A DNA stretch of 59,202 bases, the filler included, from Basidiobolus ranarum (lineage: Eukaryota): NCBI GenBank assembly GCA_040143965.1. It is 2 parts of 2 records of this genome, joined end to end, with 100 filler letters (N's around TTAATTAATTAA, not from the genome) between each part and the next. Parts side by side here need not be neighbours in the genome. Positions count along the whole stretch, not along the records: positions 29,708 to 59,202 come from JASJQH010006980.1; 1 more part is not named here. One strand, given 5' to 3'. This document shows positions 3,201 to 56,826 of this stretch, piece by piece (the first letter of the stretch is position 1; each line of letters opens with the position of its first letter). Below the pieces are notes generated by a model, which did not search any database, had not been told where the DNA came from, and saw nothing but the letters and a program-made list of their open reading frames with translations. The position numbers and the translations under genes are program-made.

Positions 3201-6200
3201 CTTGCAGTAGCTATTCCGAGCCAAAATCTAACTTCAACTCATTTCTCAGTGAATATGGGTTAATCGATGAATCCAAAAAGATCGTCGATAGATCTACCAT
3301 TAGGTTTTTTATAGTCAACACTTTCCTTATTTCCTTCACCCCCTCCCGTTCTAACCACTCCTTGCTCACTCATGTTTAGCGACGAACGATTCCATTACAT
3401 AGAGAAGAACAAGATGATTATAGACATCAAGATTGAAATCTGTACTGTGCTTGAGTTACTTTTCAACTTGAGAACGGAAATTCGAGTAAGAAAGTTGTTG
3501 TACATTTGGTTGAAAAATGAAGGGTACGTTGGGTTCACTCACACACAAGACATGGAACGATAAATCATTAACTCGTTTTATTTAGAGATCAAAAGCGATT
3601 GAGCACGCTAGATTCCAAGAATTCCGACAAAGTGAATTCATGGGAATCAGCCATTGAGATCATCATCAAACGAATCTTCATGGAAACTCGTTACATCAAT
3701 CGAGAGACTGATATGATGCCAATTCTAATTGATCTTATCAAGTATCGAAACCAAAGGCTGAAGCAAGGCTCCATTGTTGTGATGCACAGATTGTACTGTG
3801 ATTACGAAGAATTGTTCGAAAAGTCCAAAAAGTCCTTCATACTGACTCAAAGTCAAGATATTCAAGTCTACTATTGGATCAGACCCCGGGTAACCATGTT
3901 CCTCACTCTTTCCCTTCAGCATTCTCACGAACACACTGGAACCAGAAAGATGAAGGAGATATTAACGGATTTCACAGATCTGTGCAGCGGTGCCGTAGTT
4001 GTGAATTTCGAGGGCAATCTGGTACCAGGTCCAGCAGCCGCTAAAGAAAGAAACATCATAGCCCAAAAAATCCTGTTCAATATGGAAATGCACTCGTATG
4101 TGATTGACTATCTGCACCGAAATACCTACGGCGAAAGAAAGGCAGAGTGGTTTAATGAGGATGTATTGGACTTGTTCTGGGCTTCCCTTTCTTTCCTTTC
4201 TGTTTGTTGCTACGATGATCGGGAACTACATGGCACTATTCTCATTCAAAACATTGACCTTCTGTTTGAACTCGTGTCTTACGACGCCCGAATGGTAGAG
4301 CCACTGATCGATATCTTTTCCAAGAGTGTGAACCTGTGTTTAAGAGTAGAGGAGCATCACATGCAACGTCTTCTTGAGCTTTCGAAGGGCTATTGTGGCG
4401 AATATCTACGTCTACTCCGAGCCTTAGTGAAGGTTTCAGGGAAAATCATCAAGCGTAATCAGCTCTATATCGCCGATCTACTGTTGGAGAAGAAGGACGA
4501 ATACATTGTGCTCGAAGCAAATCAAGACACCAAATCTGAACCTTATTTCGAACCACCTCCGGTCTCCTATCAAGCAGCATTGATCGATTTGGTGGCTACT
4601 TGTGCCGAGGGAGAAAACAGTCTTCAATCTATCTTCCAGTCAATTCTTCCAGCAGATCAAATCTTAGATGTATTGGCTAATCAAGAGTCTGATTATCTGA
4701 TCGAAAGGGCATATCTACGCTTCTTCATCGCTGTCTATTTATGGACCAGTAGACAGGGAACTACAGGCACCAGCTACATATTCGAAAATCCGTTAATTTG
4801 GACTTATGTGGAGAAACTCTGTAGACTTCTGACTAGCTTCAATCATGATCTACGAAACACTGATCTTCAAGAAAACAAGGCTGAGATGGAGATCAAGTCA
4901 ACGTACATTTACGAATCAGTGTTGATTTTCTTAAGACTATTGTTCGACATCTACTTCTCATCCCAAAAAAGTCCAGTCGCTCAATTCGATGCCGCCGAAG
5001 ACCACAGAGAACTGGGTAATAACATCGTAGATGAATTAGCGGCATTGGCTGAATTACCACCAAAGTCACCCAAGCACCTCAAACACTTGACCAATTGCTT
5101 GGACACCTTGATCATCGAATCAAACCTGTACGGAAACAAGAGGAGAGCAGTGTCAAAATCATTGTTCAACTCCCTTAGGTCCGTTCAACCTAAAAGAACT
5201 AGCGTAGAAAGTATATCTATCGCGTTAGGTACATTGAATCAAAACTTCCAAAATTTCCTTCACCGTATGATGACATCGGGTAAGATCGTGGAATCGGAGA
5301 AAGAGGAATTCCGTCAACTCAGTCTTCACTTTCCGTTAGAGGAATCTCATACCCTTGGAGAGTACTCTATCGTGTCACTCGTAGAATATCTATCCGGTCG
5401 ACTTAACGATGTCGAGGATTCCCGTAAGGAAATATATGACATTCGCACAATGAGGATTTTGAGAAATCTTGTCAACAATGTCACTGACGAAATAGAACAT
5501 ATGCACCATCTAGATGAGCCTCTAGAGTGGGCACGCCTACAGCAACGAAAGATAGAAATTCAAAATAAATTGAACAAGCTTGGCTGTACATTGATGGCGG
5601 AGAAGCTCCTGTCCTCCAATAGTCAACAAATCTATATTAGCGCGATGAAATTACTCAATGCTATGCTTGATGGGGGCAATAAGAAGGTTCAGGTAAGTGG
5701 AATTATGTACTCAAACTAAGGTTTGCTTCCTCATACTAACATTTCCCTTAGGATACTCTTGAAAACTATTTCCTAGGGACTAGGTAAGCAACGATCAATT
5801 CACTCGTAGATATAACTTCACATCGTTGATAATTTAACTCATGTTCTTCTTCAGAGTGGAGCGATTCTTCTATTGTGTCCATCATAAGTTAAGAGAAGGA
5901 ATCCTTTCTCTTCGCAAAGCTAAAGAGCTACTCGTTGTGGATGCCAAGAAGAAAGAAAGAAGTTCCACTCTCTCGTCAAAGATTAGACGTAGACTCCGAG
6001 GCCATAAAAGCGGACTATCCGTTAGCACATCGAATTTTTTGAACCAAATACTCTCCCACTCGGACGACGTACCTATCATAACCCTGAACCTATCTCATAC
6101 CAAAGATGACAACAAGATATCCAAATATCTTCAACATGAAGATAAGACCGATCTAGGTACTACTGCACAGGATTTCGAAGCTATCTGCCACCTTATGAGA

Positions 6201-8571
6201 CTCTTACAACTAATGGTGGAGGGTCATAATTATAGTCTGCAAACGTATTTTAGTGCTCAAGGAGATAATATCAAGAGTTTCAATTTGGTCACTGGAGTAG
6301 TGGATTATCTACATGCAATCGTTCCCATTACTAGCCTTCAAGACGAGAATCTGATATTCCAAACCATGCCAGTAATTACCCAAGTATTCGACACTATCAT
6401 TGAAATGGCTCAAGGATGCATATCCAACCAAGTGAGCATCTTCAACGCCAAGATTGTGCAATCAGTGAACATAATACTACGTGAGCCATTCCATCAATGC
6501 CCAGCAGAACAAGCAGTAGAGCTCAAGGGAAAAGCAGTTCTATGTCTTTTGAGTTTACTTGAAGGCGGTAACATCGAGGCTAAATCGATCTTCAGAGAGA
6601 TGGCCAATACACTAGATTTGGATACTATCAACCGCAACCTAAGAAATCTATTCGAGCAAAGTAAAAATGTGACTTGGAAGCCTGGAAAGCAGTCCGCCAT
6701 TGATTCCGGATTTTTGTACTGTATGTTGATTATGACATTGTTCCCAGCGCTCACGAAGGAACAACAATATCGCTTCCAAAATGAACCAGCCTTCACTTTC
6801 TTCAAAAGGAACACTGGTCAGATTGAAATCTTGCGTGAACTCTCCCCGGGTGATAAACGAGTAGTACCCGTACTATTTCCAATTCCAGAAGTTTGTAGAT
6901 ATTTGCGTGAGGACACTAAGGAACATTTCCTGTGGAATGTGAAGAGAGATTCAGCTGATGGCAAAATCGAGGATTTCGTAACCAAATCAGAGGATATCAT
7001 CTATGAAATTGAAAGTCAAGCTCGAGTCGCTAGAAACTGGTATCTCTCAGCGTTGTCCGGATACCATTCCTTATGGTGGCAAAGTGCTTATCTAATGACT
7101 CTTTTACTGAATATCTTGGGATTAATGTGTGCCGCAGCGCCAGAAGAAGCTGTTGGCGGAGGAGGGGAGTTGTTTTTGGGATATGGTTGTCATTGGCTTA
7201 CTGAAGCAGTCAGAATCAGCTTTGGATTGATACACTTGTTGCTATGGGCTTTATCTTCTGGAGAGTTTCTCCTAATCCAATTGCCCATTCTTATCAATAG
7301 AAAAAGATTAGAAAAGTTAAATCAACTGCGAAAGCAAAAAGCTAAAGAAGACGCACACCTACAATCACTTGAAATAGGCTTCATGAATGATGAAGATACT
7401 TCAGATAATAGCCAAAATGACACATCCACCCAATTTAGCGCCATCATATCTGAAGGAGAGAGTCTCTCGCCATCGGTAAGTTTGTCCACTCAGCAGTGTA
7501 CGGATTCCAATGCTAACATCCATCTCCATTCACCCTAGAATTTTATTGAAAAAACCATGTATTTTGTCATGGAGCCTAAGGCGCTTTATCATGTGTTTAT
7601 GGTGCTATTGTCTATCGGTGGCCTTCGCTATCATATGCTATACTCCATACATTTGCTAGATTTTATATACAGAGATCAAATCCTTCAAGGAGTTATCGCC
7701 AGTGTCACAGTCAACATCAACTCCCTAACTAAAACGGTAAATAACATTTGTTTACTTCAATCTTCACCTTGCCAAGGAGTAAGGGGTCATCGGCGTAGAC
7801 TAATCCAGTGAAATACGGATGTTTAGGTTTTACTTGGTGTTATCATTATATATGTGTATTCCGTTGTAGGATTTGTTTACTTCAGACATTCTTTTGATAG
7901 TGAACAAGGGCTATATTGTGATACTCTGCTTGATTGTTTCGTCACCGTTCTTGCCTATGGGTATGTTTCATATTGATTTATCTGAGTTACTATCCAGTAA
8001 CTAACATTAGTCCAACACGTGGGGTAGTATCCGAGCAGGTGGTGGATTAGGGGACGTGCTACAAGCACCTGTACATGGAGATAATTCCTATGCCTATAGA
8101 ATCATTCTGGACCTATCCTTCTTCCTCATCGTGATCATTTTCCTGTTGAACGTTATCTTTGGTATTATTTTTGATACATTCGGTAGTTTAAGAGATGAAC
8201 GATCATCTATTCAGAATGACATGAAGAGTGTTTGCTTTATTTGTAATATTAGTGCGACCGAATTCCAAAGACACGCCAAAGGATTTGAACATCATATCAA
8301 GCATGATCACAACATTTGGCAGTACCTCTTTTTCTTGGTTCATTTGAAGACAAAGGATGTTACCGAATATACTTCTCAAGAATCTTACGTAGCGGAAATG
8401 TTAAAAGACAACGACTACAGCTTTTTCCCGGTTAATCGGGCTTTATGCCTACGTCAGAGGGAAAAGCATGATGATCAACGCATCACAAACTTGGAAGAAA
8501 TGATCGCAAGTCTAGTTACTCGTATTGAACAACATACCATCCCCCAGTCAACCAAGTCTAAGCATTATTAA
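211..8571 (+). CDS. ITPR: Inositol 1,4,5-trisphosphate receptor-like Ca2+ release channel (multi-exon)
   Basis: Successive ORFs joined by short GT-AG introns. MIR motifs (VLYGQIIQLRNIH, GGHFIRLYHKE, KFRHVRTQTWL), RIH-like regions, LLQLMVEGHN, pore motif spliced as YGIRAGGGLGD, LNVIFGIIFDTFGSLRDE, and C-terminal CFIC...HIKHDHNIW zinc motif. Start codon uncertain. Confidence 0.93.
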
Positions 8572-19944: not shown

Positions 19945-22900
19945 ATGTCAGACGTTGAATCAACAACACACCTCCTCAGCACATTATCAGATTTTAAACT
20001 ATGTAATTCAGACCTAAGCAATCAAATACGGAATCTGTTGCTTTCTCCCTTTAGTCTGGCTGTGCCGAATACCTCACGCACTCGTAGACTAGAGAAAGCT
20101 GCAGATTCTATTGACCTCAAGGCGCACGCAACAAAATATGGATCCTTCGCCATGAGGATCATAAACCAGAACACAGCAAAAATGAATACTCTAAAGACAC
20201 GCAACACGGCTGAGGAGGATTTAGCAGAAGCTACTCATTGTCTAATTGACAGCTCCTTTTGTGCAATAGAAGCTCTTGATAAAATGCGGGAACATTTGAA
20301 TATAAAATCACTGGAGCTTGAAAAGGCCACCTCAAATCTGATAACCCTATCAATCGATTTTCGAATGGTAATCCAGCAATACCTTGTTTCCTGGTAGATA
20401 GATTATTAACAATTTGATAGTATACGAAAGGGTTGGACGAATTGAGAAAACTGCGCGACAGACTGATAGTAGCGAGTGGAGGAAAACCCAATTCTACAAA
20501 AAGAACAGGCACTGCTTCTGCGAGAGGGGGGAAAACCAATGCTAGAGTTCGAACGGTCAAAAGTACCACTAGAAAACCCAAAAATTCACCAGAGCCAAGT
20601 GGCGTGGATTCAGTGACATCATATGCTGAATATTTTGACTTTCCTCTGAACGACAAATGTACCGATCGTGAACTAATATTGTTGATTCTTGCATGCCAAT
20701 TAAATGTCATACGATGTTTATCTGAAATCGACTATTTCGGCTTCGCTAAGGTCTATTCCTTTTCACTTAAAATGAGGGAAACAAGAACTAACGTTGAGGA
20801 TTTTAGGTATACCTGGAGGACTTGTGTCGAAAGGATGGGAATGCATTTGACTGGTGCATGAAACTAAAAGCCATAAACCAGGAGAACGCTTCTAAACAAA
20901 CAGAGTTGATGTTTCGTGCCCTTCAGCGAGTAGCTGCAAAAGTCAATTCCGAAAACGGTAGCCAATTCCAATCCATTTTTTCTCACTTGGTCCAATGCTT
21001 AACTTTTGACTAGGATTATATAGTTTTAAATTGCGCTCACTATCAATGAGATTCTTCTATGAATCCACTTTGTTCAGTGTCAACGAATTTTGTGATCTAG
21101 TTGTTAAAACGGCCATAACGTATGACAAAAGTGTCCCTAAAGGTAGTAGTGAATATTTACAGCTGTGCGATGTTTGGACTAACTCGGTTATATCTTAGAC
21201 GACTCTAAATATCAAAGTTTGCTAATTTACTTCAAGCAGATGGGAAACTTGTTAAGCCTACACACACGAGATGTCGAAAGCTCTCCAAAATTACTAGCAT
21301 TCAGGGAATATTACATTCATGTTGCAAAGAAGGTACCTTCATTTTCTACGGTTATGTTTATTATAGGTCAAAAAATTCAAATTACTTTCTCAGCTTAACG
21401 ACATGGACAGTGTGAAGGCTGCAAACAACCTGGTAGTTTCCATGAACCCACCCAATCCAGCCGGTCAGGAGTCCACCTCTGGTAAGAGTCTCAAAAACTC
21501 TTCTGCTAGCTTGAATTTTGCCAGTACAGTCCTTCAAGAAAAACTCTCCAAGCCCCCAAGTAAGTGCTGTAAGCTAAATAGTTTATTTCAGTATCTTCTA
21601 ACTTTTTCTTATCTCAGACAGGGGTAAAGAACCTCACGATCCGATTTTGGTTCTCGACGAAGCCTTCAAAGTACTGAGTATTGCCCTTGCGGATTTTGGG
21701 AGAGATGGCGAAGAAAATACCTTAGATATCAATGAAGTTCGACGCTTCTTACGATCTATTGACATGTACAGAAAGTCTCACTCGGCATTTATTAGTAAAG
21801 AGCAGGGTGAAACTACGGAGATGTGCAAACTTACCTCTAAATCCGAGTTGGTTTTGTTTTTAGCTATTGAGGTAGCATGTAATGCATGTTCTACCAATGG
21901 AGTATTCGTAAGTATAGGCCAGTATATTCAGTCTGCTTCAATCAAATATTCACAAGTATTTAAACAACTCAGGGCATTCCAGGGATGCTTCAACCAGATT
22001 CAGATAAAATCGGCCTCAACCTTGTCGATTTCGTGGTGTTTCAGGCCCGGATGATGTTTGAGAAAGATACAACTAAGAGTACCAGCAAGATACTGCTTCT
22101 GTTGGATAAGGCTGCATCTATCGGAGATTCGACCAGCTCCCGTGAAGGCATCAAATGGGTAGCAAGTTCTTGCTACAACTTCGGAATTGCACTCTACAAA
22201 TGCAAAAATTATCCACTTGCCATTACTTACCTCTCCAAGTCTTGTCAACTTCTGGAGCAATTTGCGGAGGCAAAAGCCTCCAACTTAGAGGCGCAAAGTA
22301 AAAGCGACCTTTGGATGCAACTCAACAAACGATACGAGGCTTTGGGGATATGTCAACAGGCCATCGGTGATTTCAAGGTATACGTTTATTGTGTACCTTT
22401 TTATTCATATTTTTATTAATGTACTCTTTTGTAGAACGCACAATGGTCCTTCGCAAAGTCAATGGTTTATATTCCTGAAATCGATACAAAGCCGCTTCAG
22501 AATAGCAAATCCACCGCACCTCTCTTGAACTTGATAAACCCTTTGGTTAGCAGATATATCAAAGCTGGTATTCATACGAAAGATCAAACCTACCGATCTC
22601 TTTACGAGCTCCCACAAATGGAATCCATTGAAAAGTCTAATCTTGGCTACATTCTGGAAAAGGAGATGTATTTTTTAGAGATATTCGGAGCGCATTATCC
22701 CACCCAGAATCCACGTCAAAGTATTATAGAACGAACTTTGGATATATATGTAGCTGAGGAATATCCCATCAGAAGAGCAAGAGTTTTGATTGAGAAATGC
22801 AAAATCTCTAGGTTCTCTCAAGCTGACGGCGAAGGAACTCTGAAACTATCTCAAGAAGCATTAGAATTACTCAAGAATGAGCCAAACGGTGAGGATATCA

Positions 22901-25900
22901 GCCTCGATTACTTGAGAAATCATTATCTTGCAATCGCGTTCTCCTGGAACGGCATCTTACTTGTAGAGAACGAACAATACGATCCTAAACCATTCAGAAT
23001 GGCTTTACAATTGTGGAACCGATTAATGAGTGACTTGCCTTGGTATGGAAACGGCAAAGTTTCGGTTCACAGCATCGCTAAATCTCGAGAAATATTCGGC
23101 GATGTAGAGGCTCTTTACGCACACCTTTATATGCTTACCGAATATTTTGGTATTTTAGAGCAGTATGTTTATCAGATTATGTGTTTGAGATTGATGTTGA
23201 AATTGAACAATATCCGCAAGAATAATTCCGAAGCTGCTGAAGATACTGTAAAGGCTTATATGGGAATCGGAGATTCGTATTTACGACTTGGGTATACTGG
23301 GCAATCTGGATTAGCATTGTCTCAGGCCAAATCTTTGTTGGACTCAAGTGGTTGTTCTGCAGATGTTAAACTTATGTGGTTCTTAAATTACGCTCGCTAT
23401 TTGTGTACAATTGGAAATGAAGAGAAATGTTTGACCGCGTTTAACTCAGCTAGAAACTTCGGAGAGGAATGGATAGCAAAATCACAAGATACCAATAGTA
23501 AACGTGCAATCAAGAAGTTGTTAGGAAAAGCGTACTATGTTCGCTCTATCATAATGCACCGAATGGGTTTCCTGGATTTTGCTATTATAGATGCTACTAA
23601 ATCACTTCGATTTCTGAGTTCTATAGCCCACAGCTATTCTAAAGCTGCAGGTAAACTTAAGCAAGGTCAGATAGAGATGGACTCCACACTTGGCCTGGAT
23701 TCCAATGGGAAGAAGTCTTATAACATGGAACTACATGGTCTTTTGGGTGCATCATCTCAATGGGAAGTCGTCAAAGACCTATTGGACCTGTTCAGTCATA
23801 CCTCACGCCTACATGAAATGAGAGGATCCATCAAAGAGGCTGAGTATTTCAATCGTAGAGGTTTAGAGCTTGCCCAAGCTACCCGAAGCCATGGCGCAAT
23901 GAACATCTTCTTGCTGTCGGATGCTGAACTGGCATATCGAAAGTATCTTTGGAATGAGAGCAGAGAAGCCCTGAATCAGGTTGTTGAGCATCAGGCTCAA
24001 ATGAAGGACGATGTTTTTAATTTGGATCAAGCTATGGCCTATCTGAATTTAGGAGAATTAAATCTAAGACAAGAAGAATATGAGGAAGCTTTGGAATCCT
24101 TTGAAATGGCAGAGGAAAAAATCACCGCTTCTATGGATGAGGAATTCATTAAAAACCTTGAGGAACTCTCGCTTCCTGAATGGCAGACACCTAGAGAGAA
24201 GCGTATGATTGATGCGCTACCCACTGAGCTACTCAAATCCGACCCACTGAAGAAGAGTAAAGTCCAATTCGAATGTTCTATGCTCTCTCATTTACATGGA
24301 ATTCTTTCATGTCGATTAGGTGGCCTATTTATAAAGAATGGTGATCTACAAGAGGGAGAGAAGATCATGGACTTGGTTGACACTAGACATCAGTTGAAAC
24401 CCGAGCGAGCAGAATTTGAATTAAATTTAGCGAGAATCAAACTTCAAGAGGCTGCCTCATTACTTGAAAGTCATCAGACTCTAAGAATGCTGCAAGACTC
24501 TGTTCTTGTCCTTCCTGTACTAGAGTTTTCTTCCCAAAAAGTGGTGAAGAGACGCGGACGAACGGAAACCACGATAGCAAATATCGGGAAACTGTTTGAC
24601 CAAGCCCAAGAATATTTGCACAATGCATATTGCTTGGCTTTCGACTCGGCGATTCCGTATGTCATACATGAAGTGTGTTTAGCTAGGGCTGCATTATTCA
24701 TGCTAAAAACTTATTCAGATCCATCAACACATGCACTTTCTCTTGATACTTCACTAATGACTGCATTCACCCTTGAGATGACTAAGGCAGTGACAGCCCG
24801 CCGTGAATTCTTATCGTTGCTAAGGAGTCGCCTTGGCCCTCAAACTAGCGATGACGATTACTGTTGGCCAGATGAGATCAGCAATACACGTTTAATGACA
24901 AATCAAGAAGCAAGGCCATCAACGGTGGAGAGCGATTATAAAAGTGAGATTCTTGATTATTATGAAAGAGAGCTATTGATAGAACCAGAAGAATTTCAAG
25001 ATAAATTCATCAACGGCATACCCGACGAGTGGACTGTATGTTCAATGTCGGTTGACCTCGAACGTGAAATGCTTTATATTGTTAGATATAGAGCTATGCA
25101 TGTGCCGACTGTTCTAAGGTTGCCTATGCGAAGACATTTCCTACGCGAAGGTGAAGAGGGTAGCTTTTCATTTAAGGAAGCATTTGATGAACTTCAAAAA
25201 ATCCTGCATGCGAGTGATCAAACCACAAGTAAAGATCGACGCTACGAAACACGTGAAGAAAAACTCGCATGGTGGGAAGAAAGGAAAGATTTGGATACGA
25301 AACTGAAGTTATTGTTAGATAACCTCGAAAAGTACTGGCTGGGTGGATTCAAAGTAAGTCTTACCATCTTAACTTATTCTTTTTGTTGATAGTAATGAAC
25401 AAACAACCCTCCATTAGAATATTCTTGTGCCTGGATCTCATGCCTCTCCCAAATGTATTGAGGAGTTCTCCATGGCGGTGCACAATTTGTTATTGCGAAC
25501 AGCGGCCCCCAAGTCTATTGGAAAAGTGCGACAGGTCATGATTGACAATGAAATAGCGCAAAGCCTACTACTATTAGGGAGCAATGCCAAAGACACGGAT
25601 ATTGAGGATGTGATTTATTTTTTGCTTGATATATACATGTATAGTGGTGTTCCAGTAGAATTTGACGAGATTGACTTTGATGAAGTAAGAATTGGAAATC
25701 CTGCCGTCTTTGTTGTTGTATTCATGAAACTGACTCGCCCTTCTCTAGCTTATAGAAGACTTCAAAAGTACCATCCTCTCTTTCGCTAGCCACTTGGAGA
25801 ACCCCACTAGTGATAGTCATATGATACTTATTCTGGATAAACACTTGCAGGCTTTCCCGTGGGAAAGTACCAATGTTCTAAGGAGTGTTCCTGTCTCCAG

Positions 25901-31565: not shown

Positions 31566-33224
31566 ATGGTTAGACGTTGGAGAAGGTCTGAAGTTTCTGA
31601 GCCACTCCCTATCTACTCAAGAGTTAAACGATGGGTGCCTTTACTTGAATGGTTACCAAAGTATAACTGGAAACTGGACTTTACTTATGATCTGGTGGCC
31701 GGTTTAAGTATGTTTATTATCCTGTACTTGTTTTGTTACAATCAACTCTAACCACTATTGTTGCGTTGTTGTAGCTTACTCGACCGTAGTGATCCCTCAA
31801 AGTATGGCATACGCAATGTTAGCCAGTAAGTTACCATAGATTCCCTCTCCTACTCAAATACAACTTAGTAATATCTCCTTCCTTGTATAGAACTACCACC
31901 GGTGTATGGGCTATATTCCTCCATTATGCCGATATTTCTATACTCTGTGTTTGGAACGAGTAGACATTTAGTTGGTGGAACATTTGCGTTAATAAGTATG
32001 ATGCTAGGAGAAGCGGTGACCAGTATAGTACGAACGAGAGTAGATTCCAATATGGAAGAATACGAGGAAGAGTTTCTTAGAACAACCTTAAGAGTTACCT
32101 TCTTAGTTGGGGTGATACAAATATTATTCAGTTTTATGAATATTGGAAAATATATTACCAAATACCTTTTACCAGATCCGTTAGTTTCGGGATTCACTAA
32201 CGCCGCTGCCATTTACATTGTCACTTCTCAGTTTCAAAATCTATTTGGAATTCAAGTACCAGAGTATAACGGAGTTTTCAGTTTAGTGAAAACTTGGGGA
32301 TACGTTATATCTCGTATACAACATGTGGATATGGCTACTTTTTTGTTGGGTTCAATTTCGATCGTGTCAATATTGTTCCTTAGAGCGTTAGAATCCAAAG
32401 TTCGCGAATGGCTCAATCGATTCCAAAATAACCAGGAGATAGACGATGAGACTCGACCATTTTTAGAGGTGCCTGTAACATCACAAGTGTCCAACACCAA
32501 AAATACTCTCAATGAGAACGGAAGTACCGGGATCAAACTTCCGCTTCCAGATATTCTTTTGGTCATCATTTTCTATACCACCGTTACCTGGCTATTTCGC
32601 TTGGACCAGAAGTTCAACATCTCAGTCATAGGATACATACCTTCCGGGTTTCCATCACCAACGAATCCGGTCCATTTTCAAGATATACCGGATATTTTAA
32701 TCCATTTGAAAGAGTCCTTTCTGTTAGCAATTATCGCTTACGTGATGACCATTTCTATTGGAAAAAATTTCGCCAAGAAAGACGGTTATCAAGTAGATGG
32801 AAACCAAGAGATGTTTGCCTTAGGTATATCCACAGCTATTTCCAGTTTCTTCTCCAGTTACGTTAGTTGTGGCTCGTTAACCAGAACATCTGTGATACAC
32901 ACCAGTGGTGGTAAATCCCAAATTTCTGCATTTATTGGTACTTTAGTGGTGTGTGGGATATTATTATCACTTACTTCACTCTTTTATTATCTTCCCAAGG
33001 CCGTTTTAGCCGGAGTAATTCTTATGGCATGTAAAAGTTTATTTTTACAGTTGAGTGAAGTGACTGCATATTGGAAACATAATAGGACCCAATTCTTCAT
33101 TTGGCTTATTACTTTTATTGCTGCCATAACTGTTAAAGCTGAATTTGGAATAGCAGTGGGAATGGTTGTTTCAATTATAGGATTAATACTGGAGACATTG
33201 TATAAATCTCAAACTCCTCTCTAG
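31566..33224 (+). CDS. SulP/SLC26 anion transporter, apparently without a STAS domain (3 exons)
   Basis: PLLEWLPKY, DLVAGL, PQSMAYAMLA, YGLYSS...FGTSRHL, GFTNAAA, NQEMFALG and GSLTRT. Stops shortly after the last TM segment. Confidence 0.9.
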
Positions 33225-53347: not shown

Positions 53348-53881
53348 GACTTACTTGAATACCTTCTAAGAGTTGGGTCTCGAAACTGGAATTTTTCTAC
53401 TATTAACTACGAGACCACTAAAAAAAAGTGGATTTTTTTTCGCCGTCGATCATAAATAGCGTATATGCTGTGACTTGAAAAAAGTGATTTATCGAAATAT
53501 AAATTTATATCAATCAATCTGTTAACCAACCAACACCTTCAAATATAGGTTAAATTCGGGATATTCGAATTAATTAATGTGTTCAATAAACGGATTTATC
53601 AAACCAACTCGCACGAACCAGGTGATCCTGCTTACTCTCCAGCTTGGATAAAAAATCAATCAATATCTATGGTAGGTACAAATATATATATATGGTTGCA
53701 AAAAGTTCATTTTATTTTCAATATAGTTATTTTGCTCTATATGAATCACTCTGTGTAGTTAATGATATGTACTATCTGAGGTACGTTCTTTTACGTTCAT
53801 GGTCTATCTATAAAGAAATCGAGTTAGATATTCGTTGCCTTTATATATACAACATAGTCAAGAATGTAAGAGTGTTCAGGT

Positions 53882-53971
53882 AGTTCAGACATCCAAGGAA
53901 GATAATACCAGCATCGGATCTTTCGATCCTTCGGTGAAAACTGCGAATTGGTATGGTTGTTCATCATTTGG
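53882..53971 (-). ncRNA. U14: U14 (snR128) box C/D snoRNA, copy 3 in transcription order
   Basis: Box C AUGAUGA, domain A AUUCGCAGUUU, domain B CUUCCUUGGAUGU directly before box D CUGA; both domains complement conserved 18S rRNA. Confidence 0.93.
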
Positions 53972-54177
53972 ACCTCGTACATGCTTACAATCTATACTAT
54001 TTCACTCTCTAAACATTGTAGTGCCTGAAGTGAGAAGAATTCTGGAGCTGGGTTCATTTTATTTACATAACAATCTTGCTCATGTCTAAAGAGAAGTGGT
54101 AACATGTTATTAGTTTTTTCCATTACAACATTCGAATTCAGGCTCGAACCCGTCAGAATGTTAGTGTGTGAATATCT

Positions 54178-54268
54178 AGTTCAGACATCCAAGGAAGATA
54201 ATACCAGCATTGGATCTTTCGATCCTTCGGTGAAAACTGCGAATTGGTATTGCTTTTTCATCATTTAG
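54178..54268 (-). ncRNA. U14: U14 (snR128) box C/D snoRNA, copy 2
   Basis: Same C, A, B and D elements; GGAUC-GAAA-GAUCC hairpin. Confidence 0.93.
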
Positions 54269-54508
54269 ACGCCACACACTTTTACATTCTAGACCAGCTC
54301 AGCTTATAAGCAGTGTGATGGAATGTGCCTTACCTAAGAATCACTGACTGAAGAAAACTTTGACAATGCAGACTGTGGTTTTTATCATTACAACGAATAT
54401 CTAGAGTAGCAATAAGATATTAGTCAATGTGATTCGACAAACAATTGAAGTATCAGCTATGAATAGAACAGGAAACAGTAAAGACACTATTGTAGTAGCT
54501 TTCATTGG

Positions 54509-54599
54509 GGTTCAGACATCCAAGGAAGATAATACCAGCATCGGATCTTTCGATCCTTCGGTGAAAACTGCGAATTGGTATTGGTTTTTCATCATTAAA
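54509..54599 (-). ncRNA. U14: U14 (snR128) box C/D snoRNA, copy 1
   Basis: Same C, A, B and D elements; GGAUC-GAAA-GAUCC hairpin. Confidence 0.93.
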
Positions 54600-54921
54600 T
54601 GAAGCTACTACTGCTCTTGCTTCACTGCCAAGTACTGCTTTCAATATGCCAATGTTGAAATTGACCTGACTCTCACCTTATAATAGTCGGATAGTTACAG
54701 TTAACTGCTGTATTCGTAGAAGCAGAGTGGCATAGGTACAAAGTTCTGAGATGCGGCAAAATAATGAATGCGTATAGCACAGAGGTAATCAGAGTGGATA
54801 TTATATACAGTAGTCATATCTAGATATCAAAGAATGTTCGTTAGCAACCGGTTCATTCACTCTACTGTCACTCTGCAACTGAAATCGTCTGTTTCTGAGC
54901 GTGATTGAGCTTTATTGCAAT

Positions 54922-55034
54922 ACGGTCAGTAAAGTATACTGGCAAGTATGAAACGCCCTCAGCGAAGGGCATTTGTATTGTATCTTCATGATCGATAAGA
55001 CAGGTTGAAGACAAAAATGGTTTTCGTCATTCCG
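54922..55034 (-). ncRNA. SNR190: Box C/D snoRNA, snR190-like, copy 3 in transcription order
   Basis: Box C AUGACGA, D'/C' UCGA-uc-AUGAAGA, internal GCCCU/AGGGC hairpin, CUUGCCAGUAU antisense element, box D CUGA, terminal stem; adjacent to U14. Confidence 0.75.
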
Positions 55035-55219
55035 ATTGCACTATCACCACAATACATCAAACTCAGAAACCAGCAACCCATTTATAAAACTCACCTGATG
55101 TTTACACGGAGCTCGGATGTCGGAGTTTCAACAATGATTGTTCACTTTGTCTAAAAGTAAACTAATGGATTATTAGTAATTGTGTGGATGGGAAAGGACT
55201 AGCTTCTTGCGAAGTTATA

Positions 55220-55337
55220 ATGCGGTCAGTAAAGTATACTGGCAAGTATGAAACACCCTCAGCGAAGGGCATTTGTGTTGTATCTTCATGATCGATAAGA
55301 CTGGTTGAAGACAATGATGGTTTTCGTCATACCGCAT
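55220..55337 (-). ncRNA. SNR190: Box C/D snoRNA, snR190-like, copy 2
   Basis: Same elements; 6-bp terminal stem AUGCGG/CCGCAU. Confidence 0.75.
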
Positions 55338-55518
55338 ATACATTCTTGAGAATATTCAATTGAAACTTACTTACTCAAACGGAGCATGCACCCTGGGAAT
55401 GGCGGAGGGGTGACTTAGTTCTCAGATTCATTGTTAGTGTTCATGTCTGGAATAAAACTAATAACTTATTAATAAACATGTCAATGAGAATGGGAAAAAC
55501 TTCTTGCGAAGTTAAGTA

Positions 55519-55633
55519 TGTGGTCAGTTGTATATACTGGCAAGTATGAAACGCCCTCAGCGAAGGGCATTTGTGTTGTATCTTCACGGTCGATAAGACG
55601 GTTTGAAGACAATGATTGTATCGTCATACCACA
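55519..55633 (-). ncRNA. SNR190: Box C/D snoRNA, snR190-like, copy 1
   Basis: Same elements; D'/C' UCGA-cc-GUGAAGA; terminal stem UGUGG/CCACA. Confidence 0.75.
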
Positions 55634-55720
55634 CATAGAAATTCGCAGAAATAAGATCAGGTACTTACCAACTTCTAGATGTTGTGATGAATGTTATGAT
55701 GAATGTTCAATTCTGTGGCT

Positions 55721-55810
55721 CTATTTTATAGAAAACATTGACTAGGTTTATTTTTTTTCATTGCAAGGGTTTAGCTAGGAATAGGGCTAGTAATAGAGGG
55801 TATGGGTATA
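55721..55810 (-). promoter_or_regulatory. Putative promoter of the snoRNA host gene
   Basis: Minus-strand TATAAAAT at 55723-55730, preceded by AAACCTAG (~55742-55749), AAACCCTT (~55765-55772) and AGCCCTAT (~55781-55788). Confidence 0.5.
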
Positions 55811-55878: not shown

Positions 55879-56826
55879 TCAAGGCTGTCCAATAAATGAT
55901 TTAGGGAAATAAGGTTTAAAGTAATCTTCATATTTCCTGTTAACGCACATTCCTCCACCAGTAGGTCCGATATGAGGACAATGGAAGGCTGGCCTGTAAG
56001 GGATCATGTTGACATGGATTACTCTGCACAATACATTGTCTGCTCCCATCTCGTCAGGAAGGCCTAGAGGGACCTGTCGCTGTAAGAAGTCCAGACAATC
56101 CTGAGTAGTTTTATATTGTTGATTTTCGTTCAAACAATATTTACTATGCGATTGACAAATTCCTAATGCTAGGAATTTCTGTACGAGACCTGGGAGTGTA
56201 GCAGGGGTAACTTCTGATAGTGGAACTTTCAGAAAATTAGCAATCAATGGTGCTATCTGGGGTAAGAAGCTTCGAAAAGCTAAAGACCAGCGTCGAAATA
56301 CGGCATCATATTGTTCTATTTCTCCCTTATGATTGAACCGTAACCACACATCGACTTGAACAGGTAAATGTATTCCAGTAGCTTCATGTACAAAGTCGAT
56401 TATCACGCTTGTAGATACAACATCTCCAGTTGTGGCGAACTCAAATATACTGTAACTTTTAGGGACACCCAAGATAGTTGGCACATCGGAAGAGGTAGCA
56501 AGATTAGAAAACAACCCGAATAGGTACTCTATGTTCTCCTCGAGGTCATTGAAAGTCCATGTAATATCCACTCTTCCTCGAACATCTGAGGCTAAAATTC
56601 CTGGTGCCTTGCCACTCCTTGCTATAGCGGTATTGTTAGGGTACATGAAATTTTCAAATAATCTGTTTACATAACCCAACTTCCTCTTGTAGTTTTGGTG
56701 CTGATTGATGTCAATGTTGGCCAAAATCCCACGATCCAAGCCAGACTGAGCGTTAGATTGGCCAACCAATTGATTGGAACCAATTGTAAGTAAAGTTAAA
56801 AGGAGTGCAGCTTTTTTGGTAAACAT
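55879..56826 (-). CDS. Conserved secreted fungal-type hypothetical protein with Cys/His-rich C-terminus
   Basis: Intronless 315-aa ORF with signal peptide, EYLFGLF, and CRVIH...RPAFHCPHIGPTGGGMC. Confidence 0.85.
   Translation of the reverse strand: MFTKKAALLLTLLTIGSNQLVGQSNAQSGLDRGILANIDINQHQNYKRKLGYVNRLFENFMYPNNTAIARSGKAPGILASDVRGRVDITWTFNDLEENIEYLFGLFSNLATSSDVPTILGVPKSYSIFEFATTGDVVSTSVIIDFVHEATGIHLPVQVDVWLRFNHKGEIEQYDAVFRRWSLAFRSFLPQIAPLIANFLKVPLSEVTPATLPGLVQKFLALGICQSHSKYCLNENQQYKTTQDCLDFLQRQVPLGLPDEMGADNVLCRVIHVNMIPYRPAFHCPHIGPTGGGMCVNRKYEDYFKPYFPKSFIGQP

Follow-up and report, generated by a model that had tools for sequence, protein, structure and literature searches.

The box C/D snoRNA snR107 of S. 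pombe has a length of 107 nt, is encoded in an intron upstream of U14, and is the orthologue of snR190 and of human SNORD12/B/C (Leroy et al., 2025, PMC11971394; this and the other reports on the family are cited from part of their text). Its antisense element ASE1 (14 nt) pairs with positions 2480–2493 of the 25S rRNA and guides formation of Gm2483. A second element, ASE2 (11 nt), pairs with 25S positions 333–343 without methylation and is needed for 60S biogenesis. Box D′ reads CCUA, and a conserved 6 nt motif between D′ and C′ belongs to the K-loop (PMC11971394). The RNA also has roles with Mmi1 and Mei2.

In S. cerevisiae, G2395 is not methylated by snR190, and the box A (directed to H73) and box B (directed to domain I) of this RNA are redundant (Jaafar et al., 2021, PMC8536666). 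In addition, a portion of box A is able to form base pairs with box C′ (PMC8536666). The Npa1 complex is bound largely via a long internal stem-loop, and this extra stem-loop explains the length of 190 nt (PMC11879421). In a study of the fungal snoRNAome, snR190 (CD_16) and U14 (CD_37) are given as fungal families which were undetected in Basidiomycota (PMC5824354). Our literature search retrieved no snoRNA literature for the Basidiobolus lineage, and no report of snR190 in Mucoromycota.

We analyzed 59,202 nt of DNA from Basidiobolus ranarum (GCA_040143965.1), referred to as the window. The GC content is 0.36–0.43. The minus strand carries three snoRNA genes of about 110 nt each, followed by three U14-like genes, in units of about 300 nt which extend from 55700 to 53800. 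When the whole window was searched with Rfam 15 at gathering thresholds, copy 1 alone gave a match, which was to RF04328 (snR107, “Fungal C/D box small nucleolar RNA 107 family”) and scored 44.4 bits, the gathering score being 44. With permissive thresholds (E ≤ 0.05), the window yielded three snR107 and three SNORD14 matches, all of full length, and nothing else. Copies 2 and 3 stay just under the gathering score (40.8 bits, E 1.9e-05, and 41.6 bits, E 1.3e-05, respectively, on 4 kb), and all three copies span model positions 1–118. No other Rfam family overlaps the three copies at E ≤ 10. The preliminary description of this region had recognized an snR190-like RNA, and the Rfam alignment agrees while assigning it to snR107, the S. 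pombe orthologue. The range which it gave, 54922–55633, takes in all three genes, which are encoded on the minus strand. A search of assembly G001 and 14 control genomes with RF04328 gave no match. A scan of metagenomes with a pattern for the family returned a single match (L038), which is not a snoRNA, either by Rfam or by eye.

Copy 3, which would be transcribed first, extends from 55632 to 55519 (minus strand). According to hand computation from alignment indices, it has its box C (AUGACGA) at about 55627–55621, its ASE1 core (UUGUCUUCAA) at 55612–55603, its ASE2 (CUUGCCAGUAU) at 55544–55534, and its box D (CUGA) at 55527–55524. The corresponding elements of copy 2 (55335–55217, minus) are at 55314–55305 (ASE1 core), 55246–55236 (ASE2), and 55229–55226 (box D). 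Copy 1 (55035–54917, minus) has its box C at 55030–55024 and its ASE1 core at 55014–55005, the latter overlapping the 13 nt sequence UGUCUUCAACCUG at 55013–55001. These are followed by a UCGA..AUGAAGA unit (54995–54983), an internal hairpin (54974–54951), ASE2 (54946–54936), and box D (54929–54926).

The snoRNA bodies are conserved far beyond their surroundings: within the interval bounded by boxes C and D, identity amounts to 100/105, 93/105, and 91/105 positions (87–95%), as opposed to only 31/81, 27/83, and 26/83 positions (31–38%) in the 5′ flanks. Box C shows one departure from UGAUGA, which is common to all three copies, and box D is CUGA. In the terminal stem, 4 of the 10 listed stem pairs are retained despite changes on both sides (e.g., GCGG/CCGC vs. 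GUGG/CCAC; 36 pairs are predicted in total). The predicted folds have z-scores of −3.3 to −3.9 relative to shuffled controls, and for each copy, 0 of 200 shuffled sequences were as stable. A hairpin of 24 nt with 10 bp is predicted between box C′ and ASE2. A UCGA-nn-RUGAAGA D′/C′ unit, already reported in the preliminary description, occurs in all three copies, with TCGATCATGAAGA in two and TCGACCGTGAAGA in one. The same account had pointed to variability just upstream of box D and in the D′ guide region, and both are evident from the alignment: the 5 nt ahead of box D are CUUUA, CUUUA, and UACAA, and GUCUUC is followed by AACCUG, AACCAG, and AAACCG.

These genes resemble snR107 of S. pombe in their size class (about 110 vs. 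107 nt), in their position upstream of U14, and in their location in an intron, which is putative here. D′ and C′ are separated by an AUCGA..UGAnGA unit in both, and C′ is followed by a short hairpin. Both also have an 11 nt ASE2 upstream of box D, which in the present copies would likewise pair with the 25S region near 333–343 without methylation, as judged from a stand-in rRNA (see below). They differ from the S. pombe gene, as far as it is described in the cited text, by occurring as three tandem copies instead of one, by the UGACGA form of box C, and by an ASE1 which lacks 2 nt of spacing and in which only GUCUUC (6 nt) fits the H73 site. With snR190, they share the linkage to U14 and antisense elements for domain I and for H73 in domain V (PMC8536666, PMC11879421, PMC8536713). 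A stem between the D′-side element and box C′ is predicted for both, and for snR190 the cited sources describe no methylation at the H73 G but a function as chaperone or placeholder. Unlike the copies described here, which are located in putative introns, snR190 is released by Rnt1 from a dicistronic precursor. The long Npa1-binding stem-loop is absent here, where only the 10 bp hairpin is found. In addition, box A of snR190 is fully complementary to H73 and its box B has 15 nt, a comparison which is based on the published description rather than on the sequence. Human SNORD12/12B/12C, encoded in consecutive introns of ZFAS1, likewise represent three paralogues in a non-coding host, which is putative here. 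They guide 28S Gm3878 via ASE1 and have a relatively small ASE2, and in the cited part of the report none is mentioned beside U14 (PMC11971394).

The pairing of the copies with rRNA was evaluated on a yeast-like rDNA which served as a stand-in for that of Basidiobolus itself and which originates from contaminant contigs in one prokaryote assembly. It consists of four pieces (L028, L033, L034, and L018; about 4.4 kb) which cover the 3′ part of the SSU, the 5.8S, and nearly the whole LSU, the 5′ part of the SSU being outside their range. Eukaryotic LSU loci had been found by scanning genome contigs for an H73-region motif, which gave at least 27 loci, and the stand-in pieces were obtained with pattern and DNA queries. 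A scan of viral contigs gave 0 matches. As a side observation, at least 27 contigs of prokaryote assemblies or MAGs (L001–L027) carry eukaryote-type LSU rRNA, due to contamination or mis-binning.

The preliminary description had listed CUUGCCAGUAU, the ASE2 sequence, as common to all three copies, which the alignment bears out; moreover, a 19 nt stretch consisting of ASE2 and its flanks (UUUCAUACUUGCCAGUAUA) is invariant, and ASE2 matches the RF04328 consensus letter for letter. Within the window, ACTTGCCAGTAT occurs three times (54936–54947, 55236–55247, and 55534–55545), with 0.18 occurrences expected, and three occurrences were reached in 0 of 100 shuffled sequences. Two pieces of yeast-like LSU (L028 and L030) contain the proposed target AUAUUGGCGAG at about position 323, and the pairing between ASE2 and this sequence, as proposed earlier, was recovered on the stand-in rRNA with 11 bp, including 2 G-U pairs. 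For the 21 nt ahead of box D, this domain I site is the best duplex in the 4.4 kb of yeast-like rRNA for all three copies (−15.5 kcal/mol), with the runner-up site at −15.0 kcal/mol. Taken alone, an 11 bp match is at chance level (about 0.3), with 638, 642, and 473 of 2000 shuffled guides giving an equal or longer run on the 4.4 kb of rRNA. The pairing carries weight because the element is invariant, is identical to the Rfam consensus, and is backed by the experiments in S. pombe. By hand count, ASE2 spans the nucleotides 7–17 upstream of box D, so that position 5 is left unpaired and ASE2 would not be able to direct methylation, which fits a non-methylating role.

In the RF04328 consensus, ASE1, the D′-side element, is GUCUUCUUUACCCG. 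In the three copies, UUU is replaced by AA or AAA and two model positions are deleted. The 10 nt core UUGUCUUCAA is invariant, and both of its flanks vary. The H73 motif is generally conserved across eukaryotes, and GGGGAAAGAAGAC is present in L018. Against the stand-in H73 sequence GGGGAAAGAAGACCC, the copies form 6 bp (GUCUUC:GAAGAC), in line with the earlier statement that only GUCUUC matches the H73 site. With duplex energies of −11.7, −11.4, and −12.0 kcal/mol, the H73 site is outside the top four sites on the stand-in rRNA for every copy. An ASE1 or box A which is complementary to H73 across the equivalent of G2483/G2395/G3878 characterizes the family, and none was found in the copies when compared with the stand-in H73 motif. 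The window does not carry a canonical H73 guide elsewhere, as a search allowing up to 3 mismatches gave 7 matches, with 5.0 expected. The loss of the canonical H73 methylation guide is thus supported, assuming that Basidiobolus has the usual H73 sequence. Most likely, ASE1 no longer guides the Gm which the family ancestrally specifies (G2483 in S. pombe, G3878 in human).

We thus consider it likely that the three genes at this locus are functional paralogues within the snR107/snR190/SNORD12 family of box C/D snoRNAs, and that they have retained the ASE2 chaperone element and have lost H73 guiding. Each copy would be located in its own intron of a host transcript which also bears three intronic U14 copies further downstream. 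An RNA of about 110 nt may be freed by splicing and exonucleolytic trimming, and would then assemble into a C/D snoRNP. Members of this family are characterized as stable nucleolar RNAs to which fibrillarin, Nop56, Nop58, and Snu13 bind and whose loss impairs 60S biogenesis. In the RNA from Basidiobolus, ASE2 would base-pair to domain I of the LSU (at about positions 323–343), and ASE1, being devoid of the UUU and of two spacing nucleotides of the consensus, would form just 6 bp with H73. The RNA might thereby assist early pre-60S particles as a chaperone for folding or as a placeholder, without directing methylation, as do snR107 in S. pombe and snR190 in S. cerevisiae. Expression, splicing, snoRNP assembly, chaperone action, and the absence of methylation are inferred from the family match, the conservation, the synteny, and the complementarity to the stand-in rRNA.

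The preliminary description had proposed a minimal snR190 in which chaperone pairing is the selected function. Much of this agrees with our analysis, namely the assignment to the snR190 family, the length of about 110 nt, the invariant non-methylating D-side element, and the truncated H73 arm. That the form is newly minimal is not supported, as a 107 nt version with an 11 nt non-methylating ASE2 has already been published for S. pombe (PMC11971394). A compact snR190-like chaperone with a non-methylating ASE2 is therefore known, and the central idea is not of a new kind. The three RNAs are ordinary members of their family apart from ASE1, the arm which normally pairs with rRNA near the catalytic center; that this arm is broken or altered in a fungus of early-diverging position represents a new, if modest, variant. 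The locus extends the linkage of snR107/snR190 with U14, and the intronic multi-copy layout, to an early-diverging fungal lineage. It may also be regarded as a natural experiment, with the domain I element frozen in three paralogues and the H73 arm broken. This combination fits the published view that chaperone pairing rather than methylation is essential in the snR107/snR190 family.

As to why the ASE1 core has been kept, a possible though not the favored explanation is that it has no rRNA target and is retained because it folds back onto box C′ to form a stem (UGUCUUCA paired to UGAAGAUA). Such a stem would shape or inactivate the C′/D′ half of the snoRNP. An ASE1–C′ stem of 8 bp is predicted in the minimum-energy fold of all three copies and in the alignment consensus, and it resembles the internal stem which a portion of box A forms with box C′ in snR190 (PMC8536666). 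The invariance of UUGUCUUCAA between variable flanks is in line with it. All 8 pairs are invariant, however, and invariant pairs neither favor nor oppose a structure. Furthermore, the K-loop which C′ forms would be in competition with this stem. In S. cerevisiae, breaking the stem between box A and C′ did not restore methylation, and the role of the stem is described as unknown in the cited part of the report (PMC8536666). An internal stem is compatible with three functional paralogues having lost H73 guiding, and the two are not mutually exclusive.

Alternatively, ASE1 might have been retargeted rather than lost, with the change from UUUA to AA(A) having moved the arm from the GAAGAC of H73 to a second GAAGAC in domain V, CCGGGUUGAAGACAUUGUC. 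We regard this as unlikely. Relative to the H73 motif, the second site is located about 190 nt further downstream, and the GGCUGGGGCGG motif follows about 25 nt after it. With such a switch, the snoRNP would connect domain I with another part of domain V, or would methylate at the new site. On the stand-in rRNA, the second site gives the best ASE1 duplex for all three copies (−24.0, −23.1, and −19.2 vs. about −12 kcal/mol for H73), and the flanks of GUCUUC have changed toward it on both sides. The preliminary description had stated that a complementarity of 10 nt or more to another site would speak against it. Such a complementarity is partly present, as contiguous pairing of the D′-side arm extends over 13 bp (1 G-U) in copy 1 and 11 bp in copy 2, on stand-in rRNA and with weak significance; copy 3 has 9 bp, and according to a hand alignment, its duplex resumes past single mismatches. 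GAAGAC occurs at 3 sites in the 4.4 kb scanned. For copy 1, the run score was reached in 35 of 2000 cases when the sequence was shuffled in full and in 55 of 2000 with the core fixed, and its energy was reached by 1 of 100 core-fixed shuffles. The exact second site is found in 4 of 27 eukaryotic LSU fragments among the matches listed (L005, L018, L021, and L026).

Several points argue against retargeting. The second site was noticed post hoc, and copies 2 and 3 are non-significant both by energy (9 and 34 of 100 core-fixed shuffles) and by run score, which was reached in 157 full and 265 core-fixed shuffles of 2000 for copy 2, and in 1312 and 1527 for copy 3. The three copies, being paralogues, do not count as separate tests. 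According to the Rfam consensus, the CCNG which forms part of the duplex is homologous to the D′ box of the family and was present before the change. No box containing GA directly follows the duplex on its 3′ side, so that the +5 rule designates no clear target. We found no known 2′-O-methylation at the second site; human 28S G4166, which we take to be a P-loop site, was considered as a candidate and set aside, as it is listed as a target of SNORD31. Finally, the second site varies among eukaryotes (GGGCGGAAGAC, GGGUCGAAGAC, and GGGUUGAUGAC), and the comparison is based on its yeast-like version rather than on that of Basidiobolus. We are slightly more doubtful still about the specific scenario in which the D′-side arm would have jumped between the two domain V GAAGAC sites, from the H73 root helix to just upstream of the P-loop helix, by a 2 nt deletion and U-to-A changes. 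If it were true, the snoRNP would link domain I with another part of the peptidyl-transferase domain, and a chaperone for pre-60S folding would have been rewired naturally. If the altered arm truly targets the second domain V site, the locus would show how such chaperones get rewired; otherwise, it is routine annotation.

That at least one copy is a decaying duplicate (a pseudogene) in which the guide region differs by drift is very improbable: two copies are under the Rfam threshold, guide-flanking positions differ between the copies, and box C is non-canonical, but the contrast in identity between bodies and 5′ flanks, the compensatory changes in the terminal stem, the boxes, hairpin, and ASE2 which are intact in all three copies, and the intron signals which each copy has of its own all speak against decay.

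Additional complementarities to the stand-in rRNA were considered and rejected. The 3′ strand of the hairpin together with the next bases (UGAGGGCGUUUC; 54951–54965 and equivalents) matches GAAACGCCCUUA over 12 bp (1–2 G-U) in all three copies. This site is at index 381 of the reverse strand of the stand-in LSU piece L033, and the match is probably due to chance, given that the Rfam consensus shows the hairpin to vary. In copy 1, AACCUGUCUUAU (54995–55006) forms 12 bp (2 G-U) with GUGAGACAGGUU at index 606 of L018, a pairing which copies 2 and 3 do not maintain. A 13 bp match of copy 1 past the 3′ end of the LSU falls into a species-specific spacer.

The U14-like (SNORD14) triplet directly follows the snR107-type triplet on the same strand, with copy c at 54600–54508 (RF00016, 43.4 bits, E 6.2e-07), copy b at 54269–54177 (46.7 bits, E 7.3e-08), and copy a at 53972–53881 (44.1 bits, E 3.9e-07), E-values being given for 4 kb. 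The matches cover the full model, and the three copies are near-identical from box C to box D in the alignment. With 43–47 bits against a gathering score of 64 for RF00016, they would be missed by automated annotation.

Splice motifs outline a putative host transcript with six snoRNA-bearing introns (53808–55668, minus strand). Candidate 5′ splice sites of the GTRAGN type (GTAAGT, GTGAGT, GTGAGA, GTAAGG, and GTAAGC) are located at 55668, 55374, 55094, 54676, 54333, and 53988, and candidate 3′ splice sites near 55447, 55151/55162, 54820, 54401, 54086, and 53808. CTAAC/CTAAT-like branch sites occur 41–83 nt downstream of each snoRNA and are followed by YAG. This arrangement suggests that all six snoRNAs reside in introns of one host transcript, which is probably non-coding. 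A TATAAAA-like motif, seen by eye at 55729–55735 (minus strand), precedes the first 5′ splice site by about 60 nt and is a possible independent promoter of this transcript.

Directly upstream of the putative host transcript, on the same strand, is an ORF of 315 aa (55879–56826). Its nearest named relatives are hypothetical proteins from Basidiobolus meristosporus and B. ranarum (77–80% identity). Precomputed Pfam data assign PF28387 and PF28386, and a separate Pfam scan of this ORF gave no match. The snoRNA introns could belong to the 3′ UTR of this ORF or to a separate transcript, and the TATAAAA near 55735 suggests the latter. Elsewhere in the window, all on the plus strand, are ORF pieces with a RIH_assoc (RyR/IP3R homology associated) domain (5841–7538), with Peptidase_C50 (separase) and TPR (22462–25389), and with a Sulfate_transp domain (31902–33224), which look like ordinary intron-interrupted eukaryotic genes.
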